63,029 nt of DNA. Origin: Candidatus Omnitrophota bacterium. GTDB taxonomy: Bacteria > Omnitrophota > Gorgyraeia > Zapsychrales > Zapsychraceae. Location: contig JAHJCZ010000155.1 of NCBI GenBank assembly GCA_018812705.1, forward strand, positions 1-63,029, written 5' to 3'. Position 1 is the first letter of the stretch; every line of letters begins with the position of its first letter. A program made the position numbers and the translations under genes. Of this stretch, positions 19,076 through 62,039 are shown piece by piece. The notes below the pieces were generated by a model. The model saw nothing but the letters and a program-made list of their open reading frames with translations, had not been told where the DNA came from and searched no databases.

Positions 19076-19076
19076 T

Positions 19077-46309: not shown

Positions 46310-47725
46310 TTACAAATCAGCAGATATCTCGGGGGTAATGATAGTTGGTGTAATAAAGATCAATAAGTCAGTTTTATCAATATCCTTAGAAGTCTTGGTA
46401 AATAATTTTCCAAATATCGGGATATCTCCTAAAAATGGCACTTTTTTCTTTACATCTACTACTTTATCCTTAACTAAGCCGCCAATAACCAAAGTTTCAC
46501 CATCCTTAACCATAACTTTAGTAGAAGCTTGCTCAATACTTAGTTTTGGAACTGCAGAACCACTTGCAGCATCTGTAACATCACCTAAATTATCAGTTAT
46601 ACTTGGTTCAACATCAAGCGTAATGATCCCTGCAGCTAAACTAACATGCGGAGTAACTTTCAAGACTATTCCTATTTTTTTATACTCCCAGCCTGATAGT
46701 TGCCAGCTTCCGGTTTCGTCATTAAAAAACTTTAATGGATATGGGTGCTCAGTTCCCACATCAATCCTTGCTTCATGATTATCCAATGTGACAATTCTAG
46801 GATTAGAAAGAATATTCGTATCTGTTCTTTCTGCTAACATTTTGAACACCGCTTGTAAATTCGCAAAACTAAGAGTTCCATTAGTAATTGCAGAAGCAGT
46901 TGATGTTACTCCACCAGTATCTACATCCGGGTTGATATATTTATTATTCATTACAGGGGGTGTGAACGGAAATGTATGTGTTATGGAAGAACCCGTAACA
47001 GAAGCTTGCGTAGTCCATTCAATCCCAAGATGCTCACTATCATCTAAAACTGTTTCAATAATCTTACTTTCAATTAGAACTTGTGGAGTAGTAGCATCCA
47101 GGCCTTTAATGATTTTTGCCATTATAACTTGTTTGGTTGCTGTGTCTGTAACGATCAGAGTATTAGTTCTTTCATCGAAGTTAACGTTCCCTCTTTCTGA
47201 TTTCATTTTTTCAAGAGATTCGACGATCTCTGATGCCTTTCCAAAATTAAGCATAAATATTTCGGTCTCTAAAGGCTCTTGCTCCGAAAGAAGAAGAGAA
47301 TCCTCTCTTCTTTTTTTCATATCTTCAATAGTGGTAACAACGATTATATTTCCCTTTTGCTCATATGCATATCCATATGTTTGCAATATTACTTCCAGAG
47401 CTTGTTCCCAAGGAACATCCTTAAGTTGTATCGTAACTACCCCGACTACTTCAGGACTTGTAACAATATTTATACCACTTTTAAAAGCAAGTATTTTCAG
47501 GACATTCCTAATATCCGCTTCTCGGAAATCCAAGCTTACTTCCCCTCCATCAGACATCATAACATCATCTGCTGATTGAGAAGCATCCTCAACTTCAGAA
47601 CCAGCAGCATTTTGAGCATTAAGTCTTCCAACGTCTTTTTGGGCGAAAACACAATCAACTTTAACAAAAGAGAGCATCATAAATAACCCTAAGATTAAAA
47701 TTATCAATAGATTTTTCCTGGACAT
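46310..47725 (-). CDS. pilQ: Type IV pilus secretin (short, no AMIN domains)
   Basis: SLDFREADIR N0 domain, DERTNTLIV, QVLIESKIIE, LSNPRIVTLDN, VPFLGDIPIFG.LF; follows pilMNOP. Confidence 0.92.
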   Translation of the reverse strand: MSRKNLLIILILGLFMMLSFVKVDCVFAQKDVGRLNAQNAAGSEVEDASQSADDVMMSDGGEVSLDFREADIRNVLKILAFKSGINIVTSPEVVGVVTIQLKDVPWEQALEVILQTYGYAYEQKGNIIVVTTIEDMKKRREDSLLLSEQEPLETEIFMLNFGKASEIVESLEKMKSERGNVNFDERTNTLIVTDTATKQVIMAKIIKGLDATTPQVLIESKIIETVLDDSEHLGIEWTTQASVTGSSITHTFPFTPPVMNNKYINPDVDTGGVTSTASAITNGTLSFANLQAVFKMLAERTDTNILSNPRIVTLDNHEARIDVGTEHPYPLKFFNDETGSWQLSGWEYKKIGIVLKVTPHVSLAAGIITLDVEPSITDNLGDVTDAASGSAVPKLSIEQASTKVMVKDGETLVIGGLVKDKVVDVKKKVPFLGDIPIFGKLFTKTSKDIDKTDLLIFITPTIITPEISADL

Positions 47726-47726
47726 A

Positions 47727-48086
47727 TTAATCCTCCTTTTTTAACTGCAACTCAAAAATCTTGTTTCCTTTAATTAGATATACCTTTTCTCTTTTAATCT
47801 CATGAACAACAAAGTCACCTACCTTATCCTTAAGCTTAACAATTTTACCATTGATTATAGCAAGACTACTATCTCCATCACCTAGCATCACGCCCTCGAG
47901 AGATAAGTCAGAAATTGAAAGACTATCATCATAATTCTCAATAATGCCCTCAGTGCTTACCAAAGGCAGCATTGGGTCCCTTTTGCCTTGATCATCATAT
48001 TTTAAAATATCCTCTTCGGCAAAAGTAGCATTTACCGTCATAACGATCAAACAACAAACAATAATTGTAAATTTCATAAACCTCAT
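47727..48086 (-). CDS. pilP: PilP-like pilus assembly protein
   Basis: YDDQGKRDP..PL motif, L.GV...A.ING..V..G..V HR-domain pattern, synteny. Confidence 0.7.
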   Translation of the reverse strand: MRFMKFTIIVCCLIVMTVNATFAEEDILKYDDQGKRDPMLPLVSTEGIIENYDDSLSISDLSLEGVMLGDGDSSLAIINGKIVKLKDKVGDFVVHEIKREKVYLIKGNKIFELQLKKED

Positions 48087-48095
48087 ATATTATTC

Positions 48096-48698
48096 CTACT
48101 TTTTTCCTTTTAACTCCTCATAAACAACAGCATCCAATGTTATCTCCACTAAATGTTTTTTCTCTCCTCTTGATGATATGATCCCGAAAGAGCTCACTTT
48201 AAAGAATATGTCACCACGTTCAAGTTCACTTAAAAACCTTCCAAAATCATGATAACCGCTCGTAGCCTTAATAAATATTGGCAAGCTGTAATAACGCCTC
48301 TCCTCATTCTCTAATAATATTTGCTGATCTTGCGCATCCGGCATGATCTGATCGATTTTAACTCCATTGTCATCAGCCATTCGAGAAATATTTTCCAGAA
48401 TAAGAGGAACTTCTTCTTTAAATTTCAGTTTTGCATTTGATTTTGCTACATCATCACTTATTTTTGCAACTTCTAATTCGTACTGTTTTGATCTTAGGAT
48501 ATCATCTTTAGCTTTCTTAATATCTTCCGATAGCGATCGAATTTCTGGGCCGATCTTAGATAAAGAAGCTATCTGCGGCCTCATAAGAACAAAATAATCT
48601 AAAAGAAAGACTGAAAATAAGATGCCACCCAAAATATAGTAGATAACTTTTTCATCTACGCTTTCTATATAGGACGATATTTTGTTCTGCAATGTCAT
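48096..48698 (-). CDS. pilO: Type IV pilus assembly protein PilO
   Basis: N-terminal TM, coiled coil, EVP.ILE.I, YHDFGRFL..LE. Confidence 0.88.
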   Translation of the reverse strand: MTLQNKISSYIESVDEKVIYYILGGILFSVFLLDYFVLMRPQIASLSKIGPEIRSLSEDIKKAKDDILRSKQYELEVAKISDDVAKSNAKLKFKEEVPLILENISRMADDNGVKIDQIMPDAQDQQILLENEERRYYSLPIFIKATSGYHDFGRFLSELERGDIFFKVSSFGIISSRGEKKHLVEITLDAVVYEELKGKK

Positions 48699-49285
48699 TT
48701 TTTTCCCAATCTAGATGTTATTAAAAAATCAGCAACATCCACTTTCTTGATCTTTCTCATTTGTATTGAGCCTAATTCCAGATCCGTTAGATCCGTCAAA
48801 AAATTTTCATCTTGCTTAAGATTTGCAGTAAATTTATGTACTCCGATCATTTCTTTATTTTGTCTGGAGATTGCACTACCCTCTACAAAGAACGCATCTT
48901 CATTAAACGCTATCTTCCTTAGCCAAACCCCTTTGGGAAGGTTATCGCTTAAAATATTCATTTTCTGTGACCAAATGACCTTTTCCTCTTCTGTAAGTTT
49001 CTTTATTGCGCTTTGCTTTTTCTGAAGCATCCTAAGTTCACTGATCACAACATCAACTTTCTCTTTTTCCGGAGCGATCTCCTCCCAAGATAGTTTTAAT
49101 TTATTATGGGTTGCTAACTTAGACACATTAATGACAAGTAAAATAACATGAACCAAAAATAGCAATATGATTAATCCTCCACCTAGTCCAATAACTACCT
49201 CAAGAGGCAGCTTAAATCCTCCGACAAAGAAAACCTTCTTCTTTTTTTTCCTTAAATGTAACGGAACTAAATTGATCTCAATCAT
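48695..49285 (-). CDS. pilN: Type IV pilus assembly protein PilN
   Basis: IEINLVP PilM-binding motif, TM helix, LP.GVWL; start moved to ATG 49285. Confidence 0.9.
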   Translation of the reverse strand: MIEINLVPLHLRKKKKKVFFVGGFKLPLEVVIGLGGGLIILLFLVHVILLVINVSKLATHNKLKLSWEEIAPEKEKVDVVISELRMLQKKQSAIKKLTEEEKVIWSQKMNILSDNLPKGVWLRKIAFNEDAFFVEGSAISRQNKEMIGVHKFTANLKQDENFLTDLTDLELGSIQMRKIKKVDVADFLITSRLGKK

Positions 49286-50333
49286 ATTCATATAAAGCCA
49301 ATCCAAAGGCAACTCCCAGCTGAAGAGCCTTTTTGTTCAATTCATCAACATTTATTTCTGGTGAGACGCTTAAAGCCTTAAGTGGATTCCAACTTGCAAC
49401 TTCCATTTCTAAATTGTCCCCCAAAACATCAATGATACCGTCTAGCAAAGAGCCTCCACCAGTTACGAGCAATTTATTCACCTCTTTACTTTTTTCTGTG
49501 GAAAAATAATCAATAGACAACCTTAATTCCTGAACAATATTCATAAGAGTCGACTCACAAGCAGCTCGTACTTCACTAACTCTTTTCTCTGGTTGACATT
49601 TTAGCTTTTCAGCTTCGTCTAAACTAATCCCCAAGGTATTGCTTATTCTCTTTGTAAAATCAGTTCCACCTACAAAAATATCTCGGGTAAATCTTGGAGA
49701 TTTGTTTGCAATTATCATGAATGTGCTTACAGACTCTCCAATATCCAACAATGCCACTATTTCATCTTTACCTTCATCTTCTTTTTCTAATGAAAAATTC
49801 AAAGCATTGACCAATGCAGCTGGGTTCAAACCAATAAATTCTGCCTGGTATCCTAAGCTTGAAATAAGCTGCGTTCTCTGGTCAATCATCTCTTTTTTTG
49901 CTGCAGATGCCATAACAGCCATTTGCTTGCTCTTCTTGTCACCATCTAAAATATAACAATCTGTATAAATTTGATCTTGAGAAAACGGAAAATATTTATC
50001 AGCTTCTATAGAAAAAGAGTTGCGCATATCATCCAAAGCCATTCTAGGCATATCAATATAACGGATCAAAGTACCTTTTCCAAAAACAGCAGTATATAGA
50101 GTATGTGGCGGTTTTTTTAATTTTGCAATTAATGTCTTTATCGCTTCTGCTGTCCCATTTTTTCGTGAGGATTCAGTTGCCCAGCTAACTAACTCATACT
50201 CGTTATTCTCTTTTTTTATTTCAACTAACTTACAACTATTTAAACCAATATCTATTCCAACAGCTGTGCCTTTAGGCTTGTCAGGAAGAAATTTCTTTAT
50301 TATACCAAAATAGTTGTTTAGCAATGAATTCAT
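49278..50333 (-). CDS. pilM: Type IV pilus assembly protein PilM
   Basis: Actin-like VGIDIG, LDIGE, GG.DFT..I, LVTGGGS, A.GLAL. Confidence 0.93.
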   Translation of the reverse strand: MNSLLNNYFGIIKKFLPDKPKGTAVGIDIGLNSCKLVEIKKENNEYELVSWATESSRKNGTAEAIKTLIAKLKKPPHTLYTAVFGKGTLIRYIDMPRMALDDMRNSFSIEADKYFPFSQDQIYTDCYILDGDKKSKQMAVMASAAKKEMIDQRTQLISSLGYQAEFIGLNPAALVNALNFSLEKEDEGKDEIVALLDIGESVSTFMIIANKSPRFTRDIFVGGTDFTKRISNTLGISLDEAEKLKCQPEKRVSEVRAACESTLMNIVQELRLSIDYFSTEKSKEVNKLLVTGGGSLLDGIIDVLGDNLEMEVASWNPLKALSVSPEINVDELNKKALQLGVAFGLALYEYD

Positions 50334-50389
50334 CTTAACCTCAAAGTTTAAATAGTAAATAATCTATATACATATTATTAATACAACTA

Positions 50390-50418
50390 ATTGTATTGTA
50401 AGGCAATCTCTCTATCAA
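50390..50418 (-). promoter_or_regulatory. Sigma70-type promoter of pilMNOPQ
   Basis: TTGATA-17nt-TACAAT, 56 nt upstream of the pilM ATG. Confidence 0.55.
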
Positions 50419-50494
50419 GCAGTAATTCATAAATTATCATAATCCTTTGTTTCATCAAAAACAAACATTAAAAAATCCTTACAAATTATTCACT

Positions 50495-50531
50495 AAAAAA
50501 AAGAGAGGGCTTAAATAGCCCCCTCTTTTTT
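50495..50531 (-). terminator. Intrinsic terminator after the pilin gene
   Basis: AAAAAAGAGGGGGC-TATTTAA-GCCCTCTC followed by T8. Confidence 0.88.
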
Positions 50532-50555
50532 CAACAAACTGATTCTCAAACCTTA

Positions 50556-50951
50556 TTATTGCTGACTTAAAACTCCACCTGTTGTAACTGTAAAATGCGT
50601 AGTTCCTGATGTTCCAAGACTCATAGCATTTGCATCAAAAGTATAATAACCTGCATTAAACGTACATGCATAAGTAAAACCTGATGATGCCTGTCCACAA
50701 TAAGCTGCGTTAAGATAAGGTGGTGTTGCGCCGGTCAATGAAGCTTCCGCTCCTGGATACACACCATTTGCAGATGTTTGGAATGTTTCTGCCGCTGTTG
50801 ACATCGTCTTAAGCGTGCTTTGTGCTAATGCATCATTTGCTGAAATCTTAGCTCTTAGCAAGTTTGGAATTGCAATTGCTGCTAACAAAGCGATAATTGC
50901 AACAACGATCATGATTTCTACTAGCGTAAAACCTTTTTGGCTCATTCTCAT
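50556..50951 (-). CDS. pilA: Major type IV pilin (class III signal peptide)
   Basis: MRMSQKG/FTLVEIMIVVAIIALLAAIAIPN with G-1, F+1, E+5; two C-terminal Cys; strong AGGAGG SD; own terminator. Confidence 0.9.
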   Translation of the reverse strand: MRMSQKGFTLVEIMIVVAIIALLAAIAIPNLLRAKISANDALAQSTLKTMSTAAETFQTSANGVYPGAEASLTGATPPYLNAAYCGQASSGFTYACTFNAGYYTFDANAMSLGTSGTTHFTVTTGGVLSQQ

Positions 50952-51110
50952 GATACCCTCCTTCTGAGTTTGTGAGCTTAAAGTTTACATTTGCCATCCT
51001 AAGCTAAGACAAGACAAGATATATATAAGGATAATTACATTTACAAAATATCTTAGCTCTGCTACGCAAACGACTAACTTTTCGCTCAGATTAAGTTAAA
51101 ATTATGTTTG

Positions 51111-51140
51111 ATTCTACCACCTCCTTTCTTTCTTTGTCAA
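51111..51140 (-). promoter_or_regulatory. Proximal pilin promoter P2
   Basis: TTGACA-18nt-TAGAAT with extended -10 TGG. Confidence 0.6.
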
Positions 51141-51260
51141 TTCATTTATAAACTCATCATCTGTCTGCTTTCGCACCAAAACAAAACAAGGTGGGACAAA
51201 AAAGAATATTACCCTCATAAAAAAAATAACTATGTTTTTTTCCAATGTAGCCATTTTCAT
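51114..51260 (-). CDS. Putative 48-aa hydrophobic small protein downstream of the riboswitch terminator
   Basis: GAGGA SD 9 nt before ATG; MKMATLEKNIVIFFMRVIFFFVPPCFVLVRKQTDDEFINELTKKERRW*. Confidence 0.35.
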   Translation of the reverse strand: MKMATLEKNIVIFFMRVIFFFVPPCFVLVRKQTDDEFINELTKKERRW

Positions 51261-51274
51261 CACAAACAATCCTC

Positions 51275-51307
51275 AAAAAAAATCCCACTCCATTATAAGG
51301 AGCGGGA
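51275..51307 (-). terminator. Riboswitch expression-platform terminator
   Basis: TCCCGCTCC-TTATAAT-GGAGTGGGA followed by T8. Confidence 0.88.
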
Positions 51308-51321
51308 CCATAAAATTTCCC

Positions 51322-51404
51322 TTGTGGCAACTGGCTGTCCTATTTTCTCTTAGGACCCTATAGCTTTGTGCCCCATCCTTACGAATGGTTTACCATTTAC
51401 ACAA
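51322..51404 (-). ncRNA. Cyclic di-GMP-I (GEMM-I) riboswitch aptamer
   Basis: UUGUG-UAAAU-GGUAAACC-AUUC-GUAA-GGAU-GGGGCACAAAGCUAUAGG-GUCCUA..UAGGAC-AGCCAGUUGC-CACAA: P1 UUGUG/CACAA, GNRA tetraloop, AAAG junction, P3 stem. Confidence 0.9.
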
Positions 51405-51425
51405 CAAAATCAAACTTGCAGTTGA

Positions 51426-51454
51426 AGTATAACACCCGAAAATATGATTGTCAA
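51426..51454 (-). promoter_or_regulatory. Distal promoter P1 driving the riboswitch leader
   Basis: TTGACA-17nt-TATACT with extended -10 TGT, ending about 20 nt before the aptamer. Confidence 0.85.
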
Positions 51455-51474: not shown

Positions 51475-52497
51475 TTACTTGTTTTTAATTTCCTGAATTT
51501 GTTTCTCAAAATCAGAGACCTTCTTAAGCAACATCTTCTTTTCATTCTTGATCGCAACCAAATTTTCGATTAATTGACGCTCTCCCTCTTCCCCACTATC
51601 TAAATTCAAATTACTAGCCTTTAGTTTATCTTTAGCAATAGAAAGTATCGATTTCAGGCTGTCCTTTTGATCGTTTAAAGCTTTTATTTCCTTTAACAGC
51701 TCTTCCTTTCGGCTTTCTCTTTCTTCACTAACGTTTGAAATCTCTTTTTGTATTTTGTCCTCTTCTTCTAAAACAATCTTAAGCTCATCTTCAATTATCA
51801 ACAATTGCTGTTTTAAAAGACTTCTTTTTTTACTAACTTCTTCAGCTTCAGATAAAGGCCGAATATTATTATTTGTAACTTTGGTCAATTGCCTTTGCAA
51901 CGCTTCGATCTCATCCCCACTTGTTTCAATTTGTTCGATCAACTGCTCCTTAATATTATCTTCTGCACCTTTACTTTTTTTAATATTCAAATTATCGATC
52001 TTCTGTTGGACATCAACAATGTATTTATTGACTTTAGCAATTTCTTGGAGCACTTCGTCTTCTTTGGATCTCTTAGCATCTAAATTTTTCTCTAAATTCT
52101 GTTGCTCCCTGACCATTTTACTAACATCATTAGTTAGGCTGCTCGCGTTTTTCTCAAAGAATATGAGTTCTTGTTCTTCTGCATTTATATCATCAATGCT
52201 CGCATTCTGAACTATCCACTTCATTTTATCTTCTTCTAGACGTACTAACTCTGCCTTCAATGTCCGGATATTATCACGAAGTTTTTCATTTTCAGAGAAA
52301 AGCCATACGTTCTTCTGAGCAACTTCTTGTGCGCTATTTTTTAAACTTAACAAGCTATACTCAAGAACTTTTATTGCTGACAAATTTGCTCTTCTCTCTG
52401 CATAACAAAAATGAATATTAAACTGAATAAATATTATAGTTAGAAATAGAGCTTTTATCATTGTTGTTCTATAAACAATCTTAACACTTCTATACAT
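51475..52497 (-). CDS. Uncharacterised exported long coiled-coil protein
   Basis: Hydrophobic N-terminus ending CYA/E (start possibly ATG 52461), then about 300 aa of E/K/Q/L-rich heptad-like sequence. Confidence 0.75.
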   Translation of the reverse strand: MYRSVKIVYRTTMIKALFLTIIFIQFNIHFCYAERRANLSAIKVLEYSLLSLKNSAQEVAQKNVWLFSENEKLRDNIRTLKAELVRLEEDKMKWIVQNASIDDINAEEQELIFFEKNASSLTNDVSKMVREQQNLEKNLDAKRSKEDEVLQEIAKVNKYIVDVQQKIDNLNIKKSKGAEDNIKEQLIEQIETSGDEIEALQRQLTKVTNNNIRPLSEAEEVSKKRSLLKQQLLIIEDELKIVLEEEDKIQKEISNVSEERESRKEELLKEIKALNDQKDSLKSILSIAKDKLKASNLNLDSGEEGERQLIENLVAIKNEKKMLLKKVSDFEKQIQEIKNK

Positions 52498-53813: not shown

Positions 53814-54272
53814 TTAATTTCCACCATAAACGTTATTCAATGCTTGATCAATTTCCATTCTAGTGGAAATAAAAGGCACTATTTCACAGCTTGTATCTTC
53901 CTTTAATTTTTGAATAAGCGAACTATCCAAAGGATTTGACATAACTATACTTAAAATATTACCAACACAATCTAACGGCACCAGATGGTGCTTGTAAGCT
54001 ACCTGTCTTGGAATGATATTCAAAACTTCTTTGTTTATTTCATACTGATCTATTGCGATATAAGGAAAATAACACTGTTCAGATAAAGCCGCAACAATAT
54101 CTTTTTCACTAACAAATCCCAGATTTGTTAGAATTTCACCAATGAATATCTTCTCCTTCTTCTGAAGCTTCAAAGCTCTGTTTAGCTGTTCTCTGACAAC
54201 AGTCTTTCTCTTAAGAAGAATCTCCCCTAAGCGACTTTTCTTTTGAACAAAATGTCCAGATAGAACAACCAT
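53814..54272 (-). CDS. Stand-alone MshEN (GspE/PilB N-terminal) domain protein A
   Basis: RLGEILL...QLNRALKLQ-x5-FIGEILTNLGFV...ALSEQ plus N1 subdomain; no ATPase; AAGGAG SD. Confidence 0.85.
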   Translation of the reverse strand: MVVLSGHFVQKKSRLGEILLKRKTVVREQLNRALKLQKKEKIFIGEILTNLGFVSEKDIVAALSEQCYFPYIAIDQYEINKEVLNIIPRQVAYKHHLVPLDCVGNILSIVMSNPLDSSLIQKLKEDTSCEIVPFISTRMEIDQALNNVYGGN

Positions 54273-54470: not shown

Positions 54471-56177
54471 TTATTCATCCATAGCCACTCTTAATACTTC
54501 TTCAATAGTTATTTGTCCAGAGATGCATTTTTCAATAGCATCCTCCCAAAGAGTCACCATTCCATTGACCTCACACGCATGTCGTTTTATCTCATCAGAT
54601 GAGCATCCCCTTAATAACATATTCTTGATCTCATCTGTTACCTCTAGCACTTCCATCAAAGCCATTCTCCCAGAATAGCCTGTGCCACGGCAAGCCTCAC
54701 AACCTTTTCCATGATAGAAATCTGTATTTGGCTTGAATTTATAATCGAGCTTATCCAATACTTTTTTTGGTATCTCTACTTTTTCTTTACAGCGTTTACA
54801 AATTTTCCTACATAGTCTTTGGGCATTTACCAAAACAAGGCTAGATGCAACCAAAAATGGCTCAACTCCCATATCAACCAATCTTGTTAACGTACCAGCA
54901 GCATCATTAGTATGCAGTGTAGAAAAAACCAATTGCCCTGTTAAAGATGCTTTAACTGCTATGTCAGCTGTTTCATTATCACGAATTTCCCCGATCATTA
55001 CAATGTCAGGACTCTGTCTTAATACTGCCCTTAACCCTTCAGCAAAAGTCAATCCTATTTCAGGTCTGGCCTGGATCTGTGTCAATCCTTCAACCAAATA
55101 CTCAACTGGATCTTCAATAGTAATAATATTCTTATCAACCGTATTTAGCTCATTAATGATCGAGTATAAAGTTGTCGATTTTCCACTACCCGTAGGTCCA
55201 GTAACCAAAAACATACCAAACGGTTTAATAATGCCATTCTTTAAAACAGCCAGTGACTTTTCAGAAATACCTAAGCCATCAAGCCCAACAGCTAAGTTAC
55301 TTTTATCAAGAACACGCAAAACAACTTTTTGCCCAAATGTCGTAGGCAGAACAGAAACACGAAAATCAATTTCTTTTCCAGCGACCTTCATCTTAAAACG
55401 CCCATCTTGAGGAACATAATTTGAAGTTATATCTAACCTAGACATTATCTTTATTCTTACGATAACAGCATTCTGGTTTTCCTTTGGCAAATTCAAAATA
55501 TCTCTCAAAACGCCATCTATTCTATAACGAACTCTAACACCCTCTTCTGAAGGTTCAATATGAATATCAGAAGCTTTCTGCCTAATAGCTTCTTTGACAA
55601 TAAGATTGACCATTCGAATAACCGGGGCCTTCTCTCCATCATCTGCAGAACCACCACTTCCATCTTCTTCTTGGTCCATGACTATTTCAAAATCATCGAC
55701 CTGAATATCCTGAGTAATTTCAGTCACACTCACACTTTCCGGAACTCCGTAATAATTATCAATTGCCTTAATGATTTCCGTATTAGTGCTCATAACCACA
55801 TCGATATCTTTGCTAGTGATGCTTTTTAGATCATCAACAATAAAAACATCTAGAGGGTCTGAAAGAGCCACCGTAAGGGTATTCTCGAGCAGCGAAAGAG
55901 GAATTATTTTATATTGCCTTGCAACTCTCTCCGGCACGATCTCTTGCAAATAAGGATCGATCTTATATTTACTTAAATTAATAAAAGGAATATTTAACTC
56001 TCGAACAAGAAGCATCAAAAGGTCATCCTCGTTTATCAAACCTTGTTCGATCAAAGCTTTATCAAGACCAATATTCTTTCTCTTTTGCAAGACAATAGCA
56101 GCATCAAGTTCTTTTTTGCTGATCTGCTGAGTCTCAATAAGTGTATTTAATATTTTATCTTTTAATGTCTTTGTCAC
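54471..56177 (-). CDS. pilB: Type IV pilus extension ATPase, paralog 1
   Basis: GPTGSGKST, TIEDPVEY, MIGEIRD, STLHTND, CKRC/CEAC Zn site. Confidence 0.9.
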   Translation of the reverse strand: MTKTLKDKILNTLIETQQISKKELDAAIVLQKRKNIGLDKALIEQGLINEDDLLMLLVRELNIPFINLSKYKIDPYLQEIVPERVARQYKIIPLSLLENTLTVALSDPLDVFIVDDLKSITSKDIDVVMSTNTEIIKAIDNYYGVPESVSVTEITQDIQVDDFEIVMDQEEDGSGGSADDGEKAPVIRMVNLIVKEAIRQKASDIHIEPSEEGVRVRYRIDGVLRDILNLPKENQNAVIVRIKIMSRLDITSNYVPQDGRFKMKVAGKEIDFRVSVLPTTFGQKVVLRVLDKSNLAVGLDGLGISEKSLAVLKNGIIKPFGMFLVTGPTGSGKSTTLYSIINELNTVDKNIITIEDPVEYLVEGLTQIQARPEIGLTFAEGLRAVLRQSPDIVMIGEIRDNETADIAVKASLTGQLVFSTLHTNDAAGTLTRLVDMGVEPFLVASSLVLVNAQRLCRKICKRCKEKVEIPKKVLDKLDYKFKPNTDFYHGKGCEACRGTGYSGRMALMEVLEVTDEIKNMLLRGCSSDEIKRHACEVNGMVTLWEDAIEKCISGQITIEEVLRVAMDE

Positions 56178-57946
56178 TACTTCTTTTTATCCTCATCAGG
56201 TGCTGTCAATCTCAAAACTTCTTCTATTGTTGTTAACCCTTCTACGGCTTTCACCAAACCATCTTCTCTCATAGTCCTCATACCTTCTTGACGGGCAATT
56301 TGTTTAATCTTTATTTCGCCTACACGCGCCAATACAGCCTCTTTTACTTTTTGGCTAAAAACAAGGATTTCAGTAATACCAACCCGGCCTTTATAACCAG
56401 TATTAAAACAATGCTTACAACCTTTTGGCCTCATAACTTCAATATTCTGTTTTGGGTATAATTTATCAAGTCCTACTTTTGAAGTTATCTCAGGAGTAAC
56501 TATATACGACTCACAACATTTCGGACATACCCTTCTTAGTAGCCTTTGAGCAATGATAGCCAACACTGAAGAACATATTAAAAATGGCTCAATTCCCATA
56601 TTCATCATGCGGACTATTGAACCAGCAGCAGTTGTTGTGTGAAGAGAGCTCAAAACAAGGTGACCAGTTAAAGCAGCCTTAACAGCAATGTCTAATGTTT
56701 CTTTATCGCGAATTTCTCCTATCATAATAATATCTGGATCTTGTCTAAGAATTGATCTTAGGCTCGAGGAAAAAGTTAATCCCATTTTGGGTTTTATATT
56801 AACTTGAATGATCCCTTTCATCTGATATTCAACTGGATCCTCAACAGTAACGATATTCTTCTCAGGAGAGTCTACATACTTTAAAATGGAATAAAGTGTC
56901 GTCGTCTTACCACTTCCTGTCGGCCCACAAGTTAAAATCAAGCCATGTGGCTTCACTGAACATTCCTTTAAACGCTGCAAAGCTGTTTCTTCAAAACCTA
57001 AATTTTCAACATCAAGCACTGTTCCCTGCTGATCTAAAACCCTTAATACGATTTTCTCACCAACAGCCGTAGGCAAAACATTAACACGAAAGTCAACCTC
57101 TCTGTCCCCTGATATAATGGTCTTAAATCTTCCATCTTGAGGCAACCTGTGTTCTGAAATATCTAAATTTGAAATAACCTTTATTCTTGAAACCAAAGGA
57201 AAGTGCAACACTTTTGTCATTCGATCAATCTCTCGAATAACCCCATCAATTCTGTACCTAATGCGGACTGCTTTTTCTAATGGCTCAATAAACACATCGC
57301 TGGCTTTTGCAAAGACTGCTTGCTGGATAATCGTGTCAGTTAACTTAATAATTGGCGCCTCATCAGAGATTTCCTCAACAGATGACTGGCCATCGCTATG
57401 TCCATCTTTAATCAATTCAAGATCTTCAGTATCTCTAAAATCCTGGATTATCTCATCAAAGGTCTCACTATTTTTTTCCTGCTCTGGACTTTCCCTATCT
57501 TGCCCATCCTCCTGCTTAAAATAATATTTCTCAATAGCATTATGAATATCCGAAACCCTACATATAATTGGAATAATCGTATAGCCTGTCAGAGCTTTAA
57601 CATTATCTATGATAAATATATTTAATGGATCAGCCATCGCTAGGGTCAACTGATCTCCCAATAAAGAAACAGGTATAATTTGATATTTGATGGCGATATC
57701 TTTTGGAATAGTTTGAATTACATCTGGAGAAATATTGAAGCTAACGATCTTGATTAACGGCAGCTCAAGGCTTTCACTTAAAACTTGAGTCAATTGATCT
57801 TGACTCACAAAGTTCATTTCAACGAGTATCTTACTTAATTCCCCTCCTGCTCTCTTCTGCTCAAGTAAAGCTTTTTCAAGCTCCTTTGCAGTAATAAGCT
57901 CATCTCGAATAAGAATTTCTTTTAAACGATCTTTAAAAGATGCCAT
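56177..57946 (-). CDS. pilB: Type IV pilus extension ATPase, paralog 2
   Basis: GPTGSGKTT, TVEDPVEY, MIGEIRD, SSLHTT, CPKC/CKHC Zn site. Confidence 0.9.
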   Translation of the reverse strand: MASFKDRLKEILIRDELITAKELEKALLEQKRAGGELSKILVEMNFVSQDQLTQVLSESLELPLIKIVSFNISPDVIQTIPKDIAIKYQIIPVSLLGDQLTLAMADPLNIFIIDNVKALTGYTIIPIICRVSDIHNAIEKYYFKQEDGQDRESPEQEKNSETFDEIIQDFRDTEDLELIKDGHSDGQSSVEEISDEAPIIKLTDTIIQQAVFAKASDVFIEPLEKAVRIRYRIDGVIREIDRMTKVLHFPLVSRIKVISNLDISEHRLPQDGRFKTIISGDREVDFRVNVLPTAVGEKIVLRVLDQQGTVLDVENLGFEETALQRLKECSVKPHGLILTCGPTGSGKTTTLYSILKYVDSPEKNIVTVEDPVEYQMKGIIQVNIKPKMGLTFSSSLRSILRQDPDIIMIGEIRDKETLDIAVKAALTGHLVLSSLHTTTAAGSIVRMMNMGIEPFLICSSVLAIIAQRLLRRVCPKCCESYIVTPEITSKVGLDKLYPKQNIEVMRPKGCKHCFNTGYKGRVGITEILVFSQKVKEAVLARVGEIKIKQIARQEGMRTMREDGLVKAVEGLTTIEEVLRLTAPDEDKKK

Positions 57947-58395
57947 TATTTTTGTTTATAGTATTTATCAATGGATTGTTTAATATCACTAGACGTGCTT
58001 ACAAAGAACTGAACAATACATCCTGTAATCAGTTCAATGTCCTCTACTGATTTCACATTTAACGGATCAGACATTGCTATTGTTAAACTTTTACCTATCT
58101 TATCAATTGGGATCAGACAAAACTGTCTACAAACATTTTCCGGAATTGCATTGATCACTTCATCATCAATTTCATAATTTAGTAAGGGTAAATATGGGAA
58201 ACCATACTGACATGTTATTGCTTGCGCAATATCTTTCTCTGTGGCAAAATTCAATTCAACTAGAACTTCGCCTATCAGTCCACCATTCTTTTCTCTGTAC
58301 TCCAAAGCCTCTTCGATTTGAGCATGATTTATAACGCCTCTTTCTATCAGAAGCTCTCCCAACTTTTTATGAGTATCTCTGTTAAATTGTTTCAT
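57946..58395 (-). CDS. Stand-alone MshEN domain protein B
   Basis: KLGELLIERGVI...IEEALEYR-x5-LIGEVLVELNF...AITCQ plus N1 subdomain; no ATPase. Confidence 0.85.
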   Translation of the reverse strand: MKQFNRDTHKKLGELLIERGVINHAQIEEALEYREKNGGLIGEVLVELNFATEKDIAQAITCQYGFPYLPLLNYEIDDEVINAIPENVCRQFCLIPIDKIGKSLTIAMSDPLNVKSVEDIELITGCIVQFFVSTSSDIKQSIDKYYKQK

Positions 58396-58757
58396 AGAAA
58401 TCTAAAATCAACTTTTACAATCAATGGTATATAATTAATATTATTAAGCATAATAACTCTACTATACTTATATAAACATAACAATTAATAATTAATTGTT
58501 TATCAAAAATATGCTAAAAAAATAGAAATATTCTAAATTTTAAATAATTTCTTCTCTTCTGCGAAAACTAACCAGTTCATTAACAAACTTTATAAGCTCT
58601 AACAAATTGACTTCATAATCAAGAATACAAGAAGATATAGAAAAGCAACAACTAAAGAAAATGCATGAGGATCTCTTAATGCGTATTTAACAAAATCGTT
58701 ATTGATACTATAAATAAAACATTTAATACCCAATACGCACACAAAAGTCAGCAGTTT

Positions 58758-59129
58758 TTATTCTTCGGTCAGTCTTTTAATGCTAGCAAGCAACTCCTCA
58801 GCATTGTAAGGTTTCATTAAATATTCATCAGCCCCTGCTTCATTCCCCCAGAACTTGTCGCTCTCTGAAGTTTTTGCTGTTAAAAGAATGACTGGAATAT
58901 GTTCTGTTTCAGCATCATCCTTGATCAGGCGGCAAACTTTATATCCATTTGGAGCCGGCATCATAACATCTAAAATCACTAAATCTGGCATATGTTCTTT
59001 TGTTAAACTTAAAGCCTCTTCTCCAGAAGCTCCAGTAATGACTTCGTATCCATTTGCTTTTAATCGTAAACTTATAACTTTAACAATTTCAGGCTCGTCA
59101 TCAATAATTAATATTTTTTTTCTAGACAT
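58758..59129 (-). CDS. Single-domain response regulator (receiver only)
   Basis: ILIIDDE, LVILDVMMP, LLTAK, YLMKPY. Confidence 0.95.
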   Translation of the reverse strand: MSRKKILIIDDEPEIVKVISLRLKANGYEVITGASGEEALSLTKEHMPDLVILDVMMPAPNGYKVCRLIKDDAETEHIPVILLTAKTSESDKFWGNEAGADEYLMKPYNAEELLASIKRLTEE

Positions 59130-59147
59130 GTTTTACCTTTCCAAAAT

Positions 59148-59228
59148 CTATGAATTATTTACCTCTAAGCAAATTCTAACAACTTCCAAAATATCTACTT
59201 CATCAACAATGATTAATACTTTTTACAA
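59148..59228 (-). pseudogene. Decayed receiver-domain gene remnant
   Basis: TTG-TAA-KVLIIVDEVDILEVVRICLEVNNS-TAG aligns to the REC N-terminus of the adjacent gene. Confidence 0.55.
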
Positions 59229-59275
59229 CTTTCCCTGGCTTTTGGTCTACATATAAAATAATTATAAAAATATGA

Positions 59276-59650
59276 TTATTTTTCACTTAAAATGTGCTTA
59301 ATAATATCTATACGGCTTACAACTCCAACAACCTTTTTATCTTTAATCACAGGTACTCTCTTTATATTTCTTTTAACCAACAATCTTCCTACATCTTCAA
59401 TCAAATCTTCCTCACTAACACCAATAACCTCACTCGCAGAAAACTCCTTAACCAATGCTTCAGTTGATCCAGTAAAATCATATGCCACTAAAAAATCCTT
59501 TTCAGTAACTACACCAACAACCTCCTCATTATCATCAACTACCATTAAGCCACTTATATTATTTGATAAAAGAAGCCGCATACCTTCTTCAATTTTAGCT
59601 TCCGGCTTTATAGTAATTACGTTAGTTGCCATGATATCCTTTACTTGCAT
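59276..59650 (-). CDS. Stand-alone CBS-pair (Bateman) domain protein
   Basis: VKDIM..VITI.P, ISGLMVVD...VVGVVTEKDF, IKRVPV....VVGVVSRIDI. Confidence 0.92.
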   Translation of the reverse strand: MQVKDIMATNVITIKPEAKIEEGMRLLLSNNISGLMVVDDNEEVVGVVTEKDFLVAYDFTGSTEALVKEFSASEVIGVSEEDLIEDVGRLLVKRNIKRVPVIKDKKVVGVVSRIDIIKHILSEK

Positions 59651-59705
59651 AATTTACCTCCAATGATCTATTTTTTTTGTTAAAAACATATTTTAAATGT
59701 ATAAG

Positions 59706-62039
59706 CTAAGTCAATCTTTCGATTAGATCTATTACAACATTAATATTACCAGTCTTTTCAATCACTGGAATTTCACCTAATTCACCACATTCTTCTCTAA
59801 CCTCACTCAAATGTTTATCAGTAAGAACAATTATTGGAATAATTGCCAGTTGTGAATTTTGTTTCAATCTTCCCAAAACTTCATATCCATTCATATTTGG
59901 CATAACAATGTCTAGCAATATCAAGTCTACTTGCTTTGTTTTCAAATAATCAAGAGCCTCCTCGCCATCAAAAACCTGCTCTGTAATAATATCGCGTCGC
60001 TCTAATCTTGATGAAAGCAACCTGCCGATCTGTGGATGGTCATCAACAATGAGAACCTTTTTCTTTCTTTCACATTCTTCTAACGCTCTTTCTTGTAATT
60101 CATTTTTGTTCAAGCCATCTCTAGGATGCATAACAAAACCGAATTTCACTTTTATTCCTAATGCATCTTTCATCATCGCAACTCTTTCCCGAACAACACT
60201 TTTTATCTTATCTAATAAAATCATTCCACCTTTTTTATCTGTATCAGCAAGGGCGATATGAATTGTTTCTTGATCATATAATATATATTTATCTGTTGTT
60301 CTCGATACTAATCTTGCCAAAATCTCAAAAACAATATTTATTATTTCATTTGCAAAAGCTTCTCCGAACTTTGTCCTGATCATATCCATTTCAAAAAAAC
60401 GAGCAATAATAAACACCGACTCCTTGTTCTTCATTCTTGCCTCTGTAAATATTTTCTCAACATCATTATCAAATGTTTGTTTTAATTTCAATTTACTTGG
60501 TAGAGTAAAAAAGAAATTTGTGCCCTTGCCTATCTCACTCTCTGCCCATATCTGCCCACCATGAAGATCTATTAAAGATTTACTGATAGTCAAGCCTAAC
60601 CCAGTGCCTTTTATACCTGGACCATGTATCCTCCCGAACTGAGTAAACTTATCAAAGAGCTTTGAAATATTATCCTTTTCAATTCCAACTCCTGTGTCTG
60701 AAACCCTGCATAAACATCCTCCACCTTGACCTGCAATCTCAAGTTCTATTTCCCCGCCTTCAGGTGTAAACTTATGCGCATTATTCAATAAATTTGTAAC
60801 GACTTGTATTATTTTCTCTTCATCAATAAAGAAAAACATCTCATTATCAGGGAATATCGTTTTAATCTTTTGCTGCTTTGTATCTAAAACCTTTTGGTAA
60901 TCATCAGTTATTTTATTCATTGTAGATTTTAGGTCCACAATGGTCTTTCTTAACGTGATCTCTCCAGATTCTATTTTCGAAATATCTAATAAATCGTTTA
61001 CAATTGTATGTAACCTGTGAAGATTGTCCTTCGAAGCATTTAAAAGCTCTTTTTGCTCTTCATTAATCTTCCCAACTACGCCGTCTAAAATAAGATTTAT
61101 GCACTCAGTTGAGATCGCAAGTGGAGTTCTTAGCTCATGAGAAACAGTAGAGACAAAATCGGACTTCAGCTGATCCAATTTCTTAAGTTCAAAATTCTTC
61201 CTTTCAAGGTTCTTATATAGGGTCTTAATTGACTCATTGGTTTTTTGAAGCCCCCAAGATTGTTGTTCTAGCTTATCTCGAGCATTAACTAAATCCTTTT
61301 CAGCATTCCTTCTTGCTGTAATATCGCTAAATGATTCAATACCGCCAATAATTTTGCCCTCATCATTTTTTAGGATATCAGCATTCTTAAGAATAGTTAT
61401 TCTGTCCCCATTTTTTTTCTTAATAGAACACTCAGTCTCAATGATCGGCTTCTCTACATCATTACTATAAAGCCCGCAGAAAGACTCGCAGGGATATTCA
61501 GAGAACATATTACATTTTTTACCAATAACTTCTTGAGATTTATAACCTGTTAGCTCTTCCGCTTTTTTATTCCAACCAGTCACAATTTTGTTTTCATTCA
61601 CCGTAAAGACAGCACTCGGAACAACTTTAAAAATACGCTCCAAATCCTTTTTTGCTTTAATTACAGCTTCCTCAGCACGCTTATATACTGTTATATCGCT
61701 CATTAAATGAATTGAACCTAATAGATCTTTATTATCATCAAAAAGAGGTGCCGTTTGAACAAAGAACCATTTATTAAAAAGAGGCTCCCAATATTCCTTT
61801 TTTTCATATTTTTTGGAGTCCTTTAACGCACAATATGGACAATCAGATATAGGTTCATCCTTACCATGCATGACCTCATAGCATTTCTTGTTCAAGAACG
61901 CACTTTCGTCCTTATCAGTAAATTTTAAAAATGCCTTATTCACTTTCTTTATTCCATGATCTAGATCAAGAATAAAAATAAATTCTTCTAAAGAATCAAA
62001 AGCGGGAGACCAAAATCGATTGTAATCAATGTTGTTCAT
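59706..62039 (-). CDS. Cytoplasmic hybrid sensor kinase: PAS-PAS-HisKA-HATPase-degenerate GGDEF-REC
   Basis: SHELRTPL, NLLNNAHKF, DTGVGI, GTGLGL; GGDEF-fold segment ...RTTDKYILYDQETI...HPRDG; REC VLIVDD/LLDIVMP; no TM helix seen. Confidence 0.88.
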   Translation of the reverse strand: MNNIDYNRFWSPAFDSLEEFIFILDLDHGIKKVNKAFLKFTDKDESAFLNKKCYEVMHGKDEPISDCPYCALKDSKKYEKKEYWEPLFNKWFFVQTAPLFDDNKDLLGSIHLMSDITVYKRAEEAVIKAKKDLERIFKVVPSAVFTVNENKIVTGWNKKAEELTGYKSQEVIGKKCNMFSEYPCESFCGLYSNDVEKPIIETECSIKKKNGDRITILKNADILKNDEGKIIGGIESFSDITARRNAEKDLVNARDKLEQQSWGLQKTNESIKTLYKNLERKNFELKKLDQLKSDFVSTVSHELRTPLAISTECINLILDGVVGKINEEQKELLNASKDNLHRLHTIVNDLLDISKIESGEITLRKTIVDLKSTMNKITDDYQKVLDTKQQKIKTIFPDNEMFFFIDEEKIIQVVTNLLNNAHKFTPEGGEIELEIAGQGGGCLCRVSDTGVGIEKDNISKLFDKFTQFGRIHGPGIKGTGLGLTISKSLIDLHGGQIWAESEIGKGTNFFFTLPSKLKLKQTFDNDVEKIFTEARMKNKESVFIIARFFEMDMIRTKFGEAFANEIINIVFEILARLVSRTTDKYILYDQETIHIALADTDKKGGMILLDKIKSVVRERVAMMKDALGIKVKFGFVMHPRDGLNKNELQERALEECERKKKVLIVDDHPQIGRLLSSRLERRDIITEQVFDGEEALDYLKTKQVDLILLDIVMPNMNGYEVLGRLKQNSQLAIIPIIVLTDKHLSEVREECGELGEIPVIEKTGNINVVIDLIERLT

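Follow-up and report, generated by a model that had tools for sequence, protein, structure and literature searches.

A type IVa pilus locus of Omnitrophota with predicted c-di-GMP input at the RNA and protein levels

The histidine kinase SgmT of Myxococcus xanthus, whose degenerate GGDEF domain binds c-di-GMP, has the domain order GAF-kinase-REC-GGDEF. Riboswitches that respond to cyclic dinucleotides are found upstream of flagellar and type IV pilus genes and act in both directions. In the Clostridioides (C.) difficile OFF switch Cd1, the aptamer and terminator folds coexist and compete with an antiterminator; in the pilM ON switch the folds are mutually exclusive (PMC9262584). The C. difficile gene pilA1 is ON-regulated (PMC11656802). 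At the protein level, the GSPII-B domain of the assembly ATPase PilF, in which K and L are the native first-position residues of the two motifs, binds c-di-GMP with a Kd of 6 nM, and its K167L variant binds at 2 nM (PMC11731258). The near-consensus domain GSPII-A of the same protein is non-binding, even with the consensus restored (PMC12002112).

The stretch of DNA analyzed here (63,029 nucleotides, referred to as the window) originates from an Omnitrophota MAG and harbors a type IVa pilus cluster that is found phylum-wide in Omnitrophota; the remainder of the window is occupied by ribosomal-protein and rpoBC operons. Each element listed in an original prediction from the sequence was found where it had been placed, all on the minus strand (Table 1). 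The core order, RodA / MshEN-only protein 1-PilB1-PilB2-(MshEN-only protein 2)-PilC-coiled coil-(aptamer)-pilin-PilMNOPQ, is shared by 80 further genomes of Omnitrophota. Related loci keep the order of the PilM-PilN-PilO-PilP-like-PilQ block (46310..50333, minus strand). The coiled-coil protein, which occupies this place in 17 loci, is weakly conserved (22-39% identity). Each part of the pilus locus belongs to an already known kind.

The original prediction combined three types of c-di-GMP receptor in this single locus, i.e., a riboswitch, MshEN proteins and a kinase with a degenerate GGDEF domain. In a synteny survey the riboswitch was found in 37 of the 47 loci that reach far enough and the MshEN-only protein 1-PilB core in 80 other genomes; the kinase was seen at this position in 0/80. 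The co-location of all three is therefore not conserved, which is one half of what had been named as counting against the prediction.

Table 1. Features of the pilus locus, in order of position in the window
Feature	Position	Strand	Basis
PilQ secretin	46310-47725	-	Pfam
PilP-like protein	47727-48086	-	no Pfam match
PilO	48096-48698	-	Pfam
PilN	48695-49312	-	Pfam
PilM	49278-50333	-	Pfam
Terminator-like hairpin 3' of pilin gene	50495..50526	-	read from sequence
Major type IV prepilin, 131 aa, GFTLVE	50556..50951	-	Pfam N_methyl + NCBIfam pilin models
Promoter-like site P2, TTGACA-18-TAGAAT with TG, between terminator and pilin	51111..51140	-	scan, 11/12 matches
Intrinsic terminator of expression platform, 11-bp stem, U8	51273..51309	-	scan
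c-di-GMP-I (GEMM-I) aptamer	51322..51403	-	Rfam
Promoter P1, TTGACA-17-TATACT with TG, of the riboswitch leader	51426..51454	-	scan, 11/12 matches
Coiled-coil protein, hydrophobic N-terminus, 340 aa	51475..52497	-	Pfam: no family
PilC platform protein, 401 aa	52522..53727	-	Pfam T2SSF x2
MshEN/GSPII stand-alone protein 2, 152 aa, between PilB2 and PilC	53814..54272	-	PF05157 only
PilB2 assembly ATPase, 568 aa	54471..56177	-	Pfam MshEN+T2SSE, TIGR02538
PilB1 assembly ATPase, 589 aa	56177..57946	-	Pfam MshEN+T2SSE, TIGR02538
MshEN/GSPII stand-alone protein 1, 149 aa	57946..58395	-	PF05157 only
Single-domain response regulator, REC only, 123 aa	58758..59129	-	Pfam Response_reg, 98 bits
CBS-pair protein accompanying the kinase, 124 aa	59276..59650	-	Pfam CBS x2
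Hybrid histidine kinase, 777 aa, PAS-PAS-HisKA-HATPase-degenerate GGDEF-REC	59706..62039	-	Pfam
Degenerate GGDEF domain of the kinase, residues 516-662	60054..60494	-	phmmer alignment to 4urq/4urg

Stand-alone MshEN proteins and the PilB motors

As originally predicted, two MshEN-only ORFs flank both full PilB ATPases. The two proteins display the MshE fold (for an AF2 model of protein 1 the TM is 0.79-0.84 to the MshE-c-di-GMP structure 5htl) and pass NF053729, the NCBIfam 53-residue c-di-GMP-motif model with a cut-off of 38 bits, at 58.7 bits (protein 1) and 56.6 bits across 53/53 positions (protein 2). PilB1 also passes (48.9 bits), while PilB2 is found under the cut-off (26 bits). Protein 1 has 2267 homologues and a mean identity of 68.6% over 80 loci. 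The stop codon of its gene runs into the start of PilB1 (TAATG), a conserved arrangement, with the two genes within 10 nt of each other in 56 of the 80 loci. From this overlap, protein 1 appears to be translationally coupled to PilB1. Its degree of conservation equals that of the motors. Protein 2 is present in 38/80 loci.

None of 81 sequences of protein 1 varies at G11, G40 or Q61, and 74 of them retain Q32; in 39 sequences of protein 2 all four are invariant, and L25 and L29 are invariant or nearly so. The N-terminal domain of PilB2 has lost the motif (G11 replaced by L/I, G40 by D and Q61 by E; 75 loci), and in that of PilB1 motif I is mostly kept and motif II is degenerate. Comparison by hand revealed deviations in the window itself: protein 1 carries R in place of Q32 and N in place of G47, and in protein 2 G18 is replaced by K and R38 by F. 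The first residues of motifs I and II in protein 1 are K and L, respectively.

[quoted passage not shown] The MshEN-only proteins could instead be structural GSPII adaptors that join PilB to PilM, PilC or other partners and are not c-di-GMP receptors; the conserved residues would then serve to maintain a four-helix bundle and not a pocket for the ligand. We consider this alternative possible, although doubtful. The fold matches include the N-domain of X. citri PilB (7lko), which binds PilZ with this same fold; the turn glycines deviate in both window proteins, as does Q32 in protein 1; and stand-alone and multi-repeat GSPII/MshEN proteins are very common, i.e., their presence here is no rarity. 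However, it is precisely the only polar c-di-GMP contacts (G11, G40, Q32 and Q61) that are most conserved, at positions where, in these loci, the N-domain of PilB2 has drifted. Furthermore, the two proteins score above the cut-off of the curated motif model for c-di-GMP, and the first-position residues are those of the high-affinity binder GSPII-B. These observations argue for c-di-GMP receptors. At the protein level, PilB2 has lost and PilB1 half-lost the c-di-GMP motif of their own GSPII N-domains, and the detached proteins retain the Gly and Gln contacts together with hydrophobic or Lys stacking residues. We infer that the MshEN-only proteins bind c-di-GMP and act in trans on the motors, as their subunits or adaptors.

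The kinase-CBS-REC module

The GGDEF domain of the hybrid kinase (Pfam 30.6 bits, GA 23.8) is modeled with an AF2 pLDDT of 90 and a TM of 0.76 to GGDEF structures. Here, D589-Q-E-T-I593 (DQETI) occupies the place of GG[DE]EF, which renders the active site dead, while R580-T-T-D583 (at 60291-60302) aligns with the I-site RxxD of the T. maritima cyclase (4urq/4urg). In 28 family members the RxxD arginine is found in 24 and the aspartate in 27, and the A-site is variable, in line with the RxxD-bearing degenerate domain that had been proposed from the sequence. The proposed absence of an intact GGDEF, EAL or HD-GYP enzyme also agrees with our search, as no GG[DE]EF, EAL-domain DDFGTG or HD-GYP signature was found in window ORFs of at least 80 aa in all frames.

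At this locus the kinase-CBS-REC module is found only in this genus (this species plus one sister species); identical kinase copies are present in loci L001, L002 and L004. In 30 other loci the same slot harbors a different gene, encoding HAMP-GAF-GGDEF with a degenerate GGDEF domain. These proteins have neither GG[DE]EF nor the RxxD arginine and are, therefore, not obviously related to c-di-GMP. The HK-CBS-REC order is also seen in L085, L088 and L090.

This distribution raises the question of whether the module is an unrelated two-component system that, in a single genus, was inserted by chance between the rodA cluster and the pil cluster, with the GGDEF-like domain as a mere structural spacer. 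The module is missing at this position in all 80 other Omnitrophota loci, a kinase relative in L089 has no pilus genes nearby, and in L027 the slot is occupied by a transposase, i.e., it tolerates insertions. We nevertheless regard a chance insertion as unlikely, because module and pil genes point in the same direction and the kinase retains its position and 73% identity in the sister species, kinase relatives adjoin a second type IV filament cluster (GspE/GspF/pseudopilin/PilMNO/secretin) in 4 of the 5 other contexts examined, and the RxxD is kept while the A-site is not. In this genus, the head of the cluster is thus occupied by a PAS-kinase whose GGDEF domain has only the I-site, accompanied by the CBS and REC proteins. 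Similarly to SgmT, this kinase probably links phosphotransfer to whether its I-site is occupied by c-di-GMP.

The riboswitch and its expression platform

The best Rfam model for the aptamer is RF03167 (61.5 bits, GA 59, E 4e-12), and a second member of the c-di-GMP-I clan also scores above its gathering threshold. A custom CM gave 44 matches in 81 sources, all co-oriented, on one strand and at one position, 6.3-9.3 kb downstream of the start of MshEN-only protein 1. The contact nucleotides G20, A47 and C92 are kept in 40 of these matches and are present in the window; 95.8% of cells in the alignment are paired, and compensatory double changes are seen in 11 pairs, compared to 3.8 in shuffles. 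Judged from these data, the element is a genuine, canonical c-di-GMP-I riboswitch, for which binding of c-di-GMP is predicted. It is located 190-450 nt 5' of the pilin in 35 of the 38 loci that have this pilin (370 nt upstream of the prepilin in the window), which bears out the original assignment of a GEMM-I riboswitch to this gene. Downstream of the pilin gene, the terminator scan lists the hairpin at 50495..50526 also on the plus strand.

Both P1 hexamers are kept in 9/9 aligned loci. The terminator is kept in position across loci, with a changed sequence, and the sequence of its 5' arm complements the 3' strand of P1b. In the MFE fold aptamer and terminator coexist. A transcript cut at nt 108 keeps an aptamer-like fold (-29.3 kcal/mol), and at nt 110 it refolds to the P1b-3'/terminator-5' pairing (-29.6 kcal/mol). 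This duplex is better than shuffles (<=0.05) in 18 of 33 loci and no better in 15, e.g., in the L005/L045/L051 group. An aptamer-compatible intrinsic terminator leads to the prediction of a Cd1-like OFF switch, where c-di-GMP represses transcription of the pilin. The direction is opposite to that of C. difficile pilA1, which had been offered as a parallel and does not apply in this respect. In the absence of ligand, the P1b 3' strand and the terminator 5' arm of the P1 leader would form an antiterminator to allow read-through into the pilin; upon binding of c-di-GMP the aptamer would be locked, the terminator would form and P1 transcripts would end.

The P2 site is kept in L085, L026, L059 and L076, while none is recognizable in L005 and L045. 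A conserved P2 would let some pilin transcription bypass the riboswitch, thereby supplying a ligand-independent floor of pilin mRNA, and the riboswitch could even be only a minor input. A small ORF (51114-51269, ~50 aa) is found in the same region. It is improbable that the riboswitch turns expression ON, or that its main target is not the pilin but, e.g., this ORF, with the pilin essentially P2-driven. In favor of such a reading, P2, a sigma-70-like site 3' of the terminator, is strong and conserved, the ORF is maintained in the sister species, about half of the loci lack an antiterminator signal and ON regulation is known for pilA1 (PMC11656802). Against it, the terminator overlaps no aptamer strand so that the ligand cannot block it directly, conservation of the ORF ends at the genus (with only ~40% amino-acid identity within it), and the linkage of aptamer and pilin holds also in L005 and L045, where no P2 is recognizable.

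Combined reading and comparison with known systems

The original prediction is thus supported in part. Observed are the elements themselves, their folds and motifs, synteny and covariation in the RNA; the OFF direction, regulation of the motors and each binding of c-di-GMP are predictions. Input of c-di-GMP at multiple levels is plausible from the sequence data, and we lean slightly toward a pilus cluster that receives this signal at two conserved levels, RNA and protein, plus a third, genus-specific level. A pilin OFF switch and an MshE-like activating receptor would pull in opposite directions.

The Omnitrophota element is of the same aptamer class as Cd1, the transcriptional OFF switch of the C. 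difficile flgB operon, and also shares the downstream intrinsic terminator that coexists with the folded aptamer while an antiterminator competes (PMC9262584). In contrast to Cd1, which targets flagellar genes, its target is a type IV pilin, its predicted antiterminator is built with the 3' strand of P1b and not with that of the aptamer, a second promoter follows the terminator, and switching is predicted. Cyclic-dinucleotide riboswitches are located just 5' of type IV pilus genes also in C. difficile (Cdi2_4, pilA1; PMC11656802) and Geobacter (pilM GEMM-Ib; PMC9262584). However, Cdi2_4 is a class II ON switch and the pilM element a cGAMP-sensing ON switch, whereas the Omnitrophota riboswitch is a class I element that combines G20/A47/C92, the c-di-GMP triad, with an OFF-type layout.

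The MshEN-only proteins share the fold of V. cholerae MshE, the layout of MshE and Thermus thermophilus PilF GSPII-A/B/C (two motifs over 53 residues, with 5 residues as the spacer), and, in protein 1, the K/L first-position residues of GSPII-B. They differ in being separate ~150-aa proteins rather than N-termini of ATPases, whose own domains are degenerate here, and in deviating from the consensus (Q32R and G47N in protein 1, G18K and R38F in protein 2). Similarly to SgmT, the kinase combines a dead GGDEF domain with an intact RxxD I-site in a type IV-piliated organism, but it has another domain order (PAS-PAS-HisKA-HATPase-GGDEF-REC) and no sequence orthology, and its partners are REC-only and CBS proteins instead of a DNA-binding regulator of the DigR type.

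Composition of the pilus locus

The type IVa pilus locus brings together a prepilin with PilB, PilC, PilM, PilN, PilO and PilQ, as assigned by Pfam and NCBIfam (see the table below). All genes of the window, which has a G+C content of about 35%, are found on the minus strand. The Pfam-scanned part of the window (46310-62039) encodes neither the retraction ATPase PilT nor the prepilin peptidase PilD; both may be located elsewhere in the genome. Products in NCBI assemblies that carry identical pieces of the window bear the name Candidatus Omnitrophica, and source-named homologues of the window proteins are from Omnitrophota or Omnitrophica. The window sequence itself occurs in DNA metagenomes only (groundwater and biofilm). 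Omnitrophota are uncultured and often ultra-small bacteria, for which surface appendages are considered relevant to attachment or host dependence.

Each item of the observation behind the original prediction was borne out by the Pfam, NCBIfam and Rfam assignments, i.e., all c-di-GMP-related elements that it listed are present: a riboswitch before the pilin gene, two stand-alone MshEN proteins (MshEN-only#1 and MshEN-only#2) and a hybrid histidine kinase with a degenerate GGDEF domain. An intact turnover enzyme is missing from the window, as also stated there, with the GG[DE]EF, EAL-domain DDFGTG and HD-GYP motifs all absent from a six-frame motif scan.

The assembly ATPases PilB1 and PilB2 are tandem paralogues (together 54471-57946) that appear intact and are kept throughout the phylum; in both, the Walker A motif, the Walker B region and the His box can be read in the sequence, along with cysteine motifs consistent with a zinc site. 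The coiled-coil protein encoded after PilC matches no family; a weakly conserved counterpart (22-39% identity) occupies this position in 17 loci.

Coordinates of features in the window and in compared loci (L-numbers; L085 is from the sister species)
Source	Feature	Coordinates	Strand	Remark
Window	RodA	62131-63006	-	
Window	Hybrid histidine kinase	59706-62039	-	777 aa
Window	CBS-pair protein	59276-59650	-	
Window	REC-only protein	58758-59129	-	
Window	MshEN-only#1	57946-58395	-	149 aa
Window	PilB1	56177-57946	-	
Window	PilB2	54471-56177	-	
Window	MshEN-only#2	53814-54272	-	152 aa
Window	PilC	52522-53727	-	
Window	Coiled-coil protein, hydrophobic N-terminus	51475-52497	-	340 aa; between PilC and riboswitch promoter
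Window	Promoter P1, TTGACA-17-TATACT	51426-51454	-	upstream of aptamer
Window	Riboswitch aptamer	51322-51403	-	Rfam
Window	Intrinsic terminator	51273-51309	-	3' of aptamer
Window	Small hydrophobic ORF	51114-51269	-	45-51 aa; between terminator and P2 site
Window	P2 site, TTGACA-18-TAGAAT with TG	51111-51140	-	between terminator and pilin
Window	Prepilin	50556-50951	-	
Window	PilM, PilN, PilO, PilP-like protein, PilQ secretin	46310-50333	-	
L085	Counterpart of small ORF	20343-20531		
L025	Second c-di-GMP-I aptamer	16523-16624		
L025	ORF after second aptamer	16654-19179		841 aa
L063	Tandem aptamers	15771-15882 and 15958-16069		before pilin
L010	TM-HAMP-GAF-GGDEF* gene	8512-9948		
L018	TM-HAMP-GAF-GGDEF* gene	8536-9951		
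L030	TM-HAMP-GAF-GGDEF* gene	4162-5610		
L027	DDE transposase	8993-9988		

The riboswitch and the pilin leader

The aptamer belongs to the c-di-GMP-I clan (Rfam, E = 4e-12). Its best model is RF03167 (61.5 bits against a gathering threshold, GA, of 59), while a second model of the clan (CL00126) also scores above its GA and is masked by the overlap rule. Despite this ranking, the "GGC" variant identity that RF03167 represents was rejected, because, in the printed alignment, the window has an A at the position whose G in the RF03167 consensus marks that family off from canonical class I. The orthologous aptamers also score best on RF01051, the top model in two of the three related loci with an Rfam match (58-60 bits in L005 and L021; GA 35). 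Apart from its defining paper, the literature that mentions the RF03167 variant holds no ligand data.

A covariance model (CM) built from four copies of the aptamer and searched against 81 sources gave 44 matches, all co-oriented with the pilus genes and located 6.3-9.3 kb downstream of the MshEN-only#1 start. The aptamer is found in 37 of the 47 loci that reach at least 1.5 kb past PilC, and 35 of the 38 loci with this pilin have it 190-450 nt before the pilin gene. We take G20, A47 and C92 (Vc2 numbering) to be the ligand contacts; mapped in this way, the G/A/C triad is present in the window aptamer and in 40 of the 44 related matches. Across 42 distinct sequences the three-helix architecture (helices P1, P1b and P2) has 95.8% of its cells paired, against at most 47% in slid controls, and compensatory double changes occur at 11 of 20 pairs versus 3.8 ± 1.0 in shuffles; this covariation is supportive rather than independent, because the model itself guided the alignment. 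Covariance score, architecture and contact nucleotides thus all agree with a canonical c-di-GMP-I aptamer, for which c-di-GMP is the predicted ligand. In one locus (L063) a tandem pair of aptamers precedes the pilin gene, and in another (L025) a second aptamer lies directly before a long ORF without a Pfam domain.

The near-consensus promoter P1 upstream of the aptamer is kept in nine of nine aligned loci. The terminator that follows the aptamer (11-bp stem and a U8 tail) is constant in position and variable in sequence across loci. Within the c-di-GMP-I class, coexistence of aptamer and terminator characterizes the OFF switch Cd1, and in the pilM ON switch the two are mutually exclusive (PMC9262584). 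In the minimum-free-energy (MFE) fold of the whole window leader, the terminator coexists with an aptamer-like fold. In 8 of 12 loci, a transcript cut before the 3' arm of the terminator is predicted to refold, with the terminator 5' arm pairing to the 3' P1b strand. For the window leader, the energy of this antiterminator (-29.6 kcal/mol at nt 110) nearly equals that of the aptamer-like fold (-29.3 kcal/mol at nt 108), both values being from unconstrained MFE folds. Complementarity between helix P1b and the terminator exceeds that of shuffled sequences at the ≤0.05 level in 18 of 33 loci, against an expectation of about 1.6. A cross-locus control (mean -10.95 kcal/mol for own-locus pairs and -10.42 kcal/mol for cross-locus pairs) carries no information, given how little P1b varies. 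From the coexisting aptamer and terminator together with the competing antiterminator fold, we predict that c-di-GMP probably terminates transcripts from promoter P1, i.e., that the switch is of the OFF type.

Between the terminator and the pilin gene, about 160 nt before its ATG, lies a second strong, near-consensus site (P2) resembling a sigma-70 promoter, which recurs in the sister species as well as in three further loci (L026, L059 and L076). Rather than acting as a gate, the riboswitch probably modulates the level of pilin mRNA. The small hydrophobic ORF in the same interval has a counterpart at the same place and in the same frame in the sister species (about 40% amino acid identity); as the true target of the riboswitch it was rejected, since its conservation is poor and it is not recognizable outside the genus.

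Detached and motor-borne MshEN modules

The Pfam model PF05157 is matched above its GA by MshEN-only#1, MshEN-only#2 and the N-domains of PilB1 and PilB2; these matches are silent on the ligand site because they span the C-terminal subdomain only. Over their full lengths, both stand-alone proteins are clearly homologous to MshE (5htl), PilF and the N-domains of Geobacter PilB. The GSPII fold, i.e., an N-terminal four-helix bundle followed by a C-terminal alpha/beta subdomain, is present in MshEN-only#1 according to its AF2 model (pLDDT 85.7; helices 12-18, 24-37, 41-47 and 53-64, then the alpha/beta part), to which the closest fold is MshE with bound c-di-GMP (5htl, TM 0.79/0.84), and is indicated for MshEN-only#2 by sequence-level matches to 5htl and PilF.

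The ligand motif consists of two 24-residue stretches, (R/K/L)LGxx(L/V/I)(L/V/I)xxG(L/V/I)(L/V/I)xxxxLxxxLxxQ, separated by a five-residue spacer, which is five residues long in all four modules. In MshE, two glycines and two glutamines make the sole polar contacts to c-di-GMP (PMC5013675). These positions are conserved in the detached modules and, apart from Q32, decayed in the motor-borne ones (see the table below).

Scores on NF053729 (the NCBIfam 53-position model of the c-di-GMP motif; cut-off 38 bits) and conservation of the polar contact positions
Module	Window score (bits)	G11	G40	Q32	Q61
MshEN-only#1 (81 sequences)	58.7	invariant	invariant	Q in 74/81	invariant
MshEN-only#2 (39 sequences)	56.6	invariant	invariant	invariant	invariant
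PilB1 N-domain	48.9	K/Q	S	Q in 78/83	G/S
PilB2 N-domain	26.0 (below cut-off)	I/L	D	Q in 65/75	E

Read by hand, the motifs of the window's own MshEN-only#1 start with K-L-G and L-I-G, with R at Q32 and N at G47; those of MshEN-only#2 start with R-L-G and F-I-G, with both glutamines kept and K at G18. Loss of the arginines is not disqualifying, because GSPII-B of PilF begins its motifs with K and L and binds c-di-GMP at 6 nM (2 nM in the K167L variant), and the first motif position has been widened to (R/K/L) (PMC11731258). MshEN-only#1 has exactly this K and L combination and differs in this respect from MshEN-only#2, with its R and F. A near-consensus motif is nevertheless insufficient, because GSPII-A of PilF carries one and does not bind even after the consensus is restored (PMC12002112); among the four PilF stretches that MshEN-only#1 matches, GSPII-A scores highest. 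On these motif patterns, c-di-GMP binding is predicted as likely for MshEN-only#2 and, with somewhat less assurance, for MshEN-only#1; it would be unlikely for the PilB1 N-domain and highly improbable for that of PilB2.

By its conservation, MshEN-only#1 counts among the core genes of the pilus. Its homologues number 2267, and tblastn confirmed 494 loci in the set of species-representative genomes. Averaged over 80 loci, its identity is 68.6%, which equals or exceeds the values for PilB1, PilB2 and PilC; in 56 of the 80, the MshEN-only#1 stop codon overlaps, or lies at most 10 nt from, the PilB1 start. MshEN-only#2 is found in 38 of the 80 loci. Stand-alone MshEN proteins are common, with many examples of about 150 aa among the top matches of an exhaustive search, which also include proteins with two to seven MshEN repeats.

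A tentative reading, which we regard as possible rather than probable, is that in Omnitrophota the pilus motor senses c-di-GMP through a part that has become separate from the ATPase, as in a "split MshE". The two PilB paralogues, whose N-terminal motifs have decayed, would then be served in trans by two highly conserved MshEN proteins, the first of which appears to be translationally coupled to PilB1 through the stop/start overlap. A single messenger might in this way tune motor activity through exchangeable sensor subunits, with pilin supply capped by the OFF riboswitch, and the circuit would be multi-level and phylum-wide.

The hybrid kinase and the locus as a whole

Residues 516-662 of the kinase score 30.6 bits on the Pfam GGDEF model (GA 23.8). 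In an alignment with the T. maritima cyclase, RTTD (R580-D583) falls on the RxxD I-site and DQETI on the GGDEF motif (A-site), the RxxD preceding the A-site by five residues. The AF2 model of the domain (pLDDT 90) reaches a TM score of 0.76 both to 4urq and to c-di-GMP-bound GcbC (5euh). Among 28 relatives with a HisKA-HATPase-GGDEF-REC core, the A-site positions vary, and the I-site arginine is kept in 24 and the aspartate in 27. Fold, lost GG[DE]EF and conserved RxxD are those of an I-site-type degenerate GGDEF domain; a lost A-site with a kept I-site is as expected of an I-site receptor, which is not proof of one, and ligand binding is a prediction from sequence and model. SgmT has the domain order GAF-kinase-REC-GGDEF. 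The kinase differs in being ordered PAS-PAS-HisKA-HATPase-GGDEF-REC, so that comparison of domain order reveals neither shared architecture nor orthology; it would be at most SgmT-like in action and is not a member of the SgmT family.

The kinase, CBS and REC genes lie between RodA and MshEN-only#1 solely in the window species and its sister species (73% identity), and this trio is found at that position in none of 80 other loci; the module is therefore lineage-specific at the pilus locus. The kinase family is recurrently linked to type IV filament systems: in four of the five other contexts examined, relatives adjoin a second filament cluster (L086, L087, L088 and L090) with a GspE-like ATPase of 539-553 aa, to which L086-L088 add GspF, T2SSG pseudopilins and a secretin, and L086 and L087 also PilM/N/O. 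In L088 and L090, the relatives keep their CBS and REC neighbours. Among these filament loci, L087 also carries a full che cluster and L090 a kinase-PilZ fusion.

In 30 other loci, the slot between RodA and MshEN-only#1 holds, directly upstream of the latter, a gene for a TM-HAMP-GAF-GGDEF* protein of about 475 aa (for example in L010, L018 and L030, and in 27 further loci). Despite Pfam GGDEF scores of up to 99.6 bits, its identity as an active diguanylate cyclase was rejected: the protein is probably not a cyclase, because it has GDHEF or AEHEF in place of GG[DE]EF and lacks the RxxD arginine. The slot accepts insertions, since one locus (L027) has a DDE transposase there.

The claim of the original prediction that the pilus locus is wired to c-di-GMP through riboswitch, MshEN-only proteins and kinase therefore holds in part: the riboswitch, the MshEN motifs and the I-site pattern speak for it, and the absence of the kinase from this position in all 80 other loci speaks against it. 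What the present analysis mainly adds is the predicted OFF direction with its bypass promoter, and the opposition between conserved detached and decayed motor-borne MshEN modules. For the question of whether c-di-GMP governs the pili of Omnitrophota, the locus supplies cheaply testable parts, i.e., an 82-nt RNA, two 150-aa proteins and a 150-aa GGDEF-like domain. Should the detached MshEN proteins not bind the messenger, what remains would be an ordinary cluster of pilus genes and a single ordinary riboswitch; c-di-GMP binding by these proteins, combined with action on the motors in trans, would represent a new coupling of the messenger to PilB-type ATPases. Each component is of a known kind, with ligand binding predicted throughout, and it is their arrangement that is new; a class I riboswitch of the OFF type before a pilin gene would mirror the C. 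difficile paradigm in reverse.
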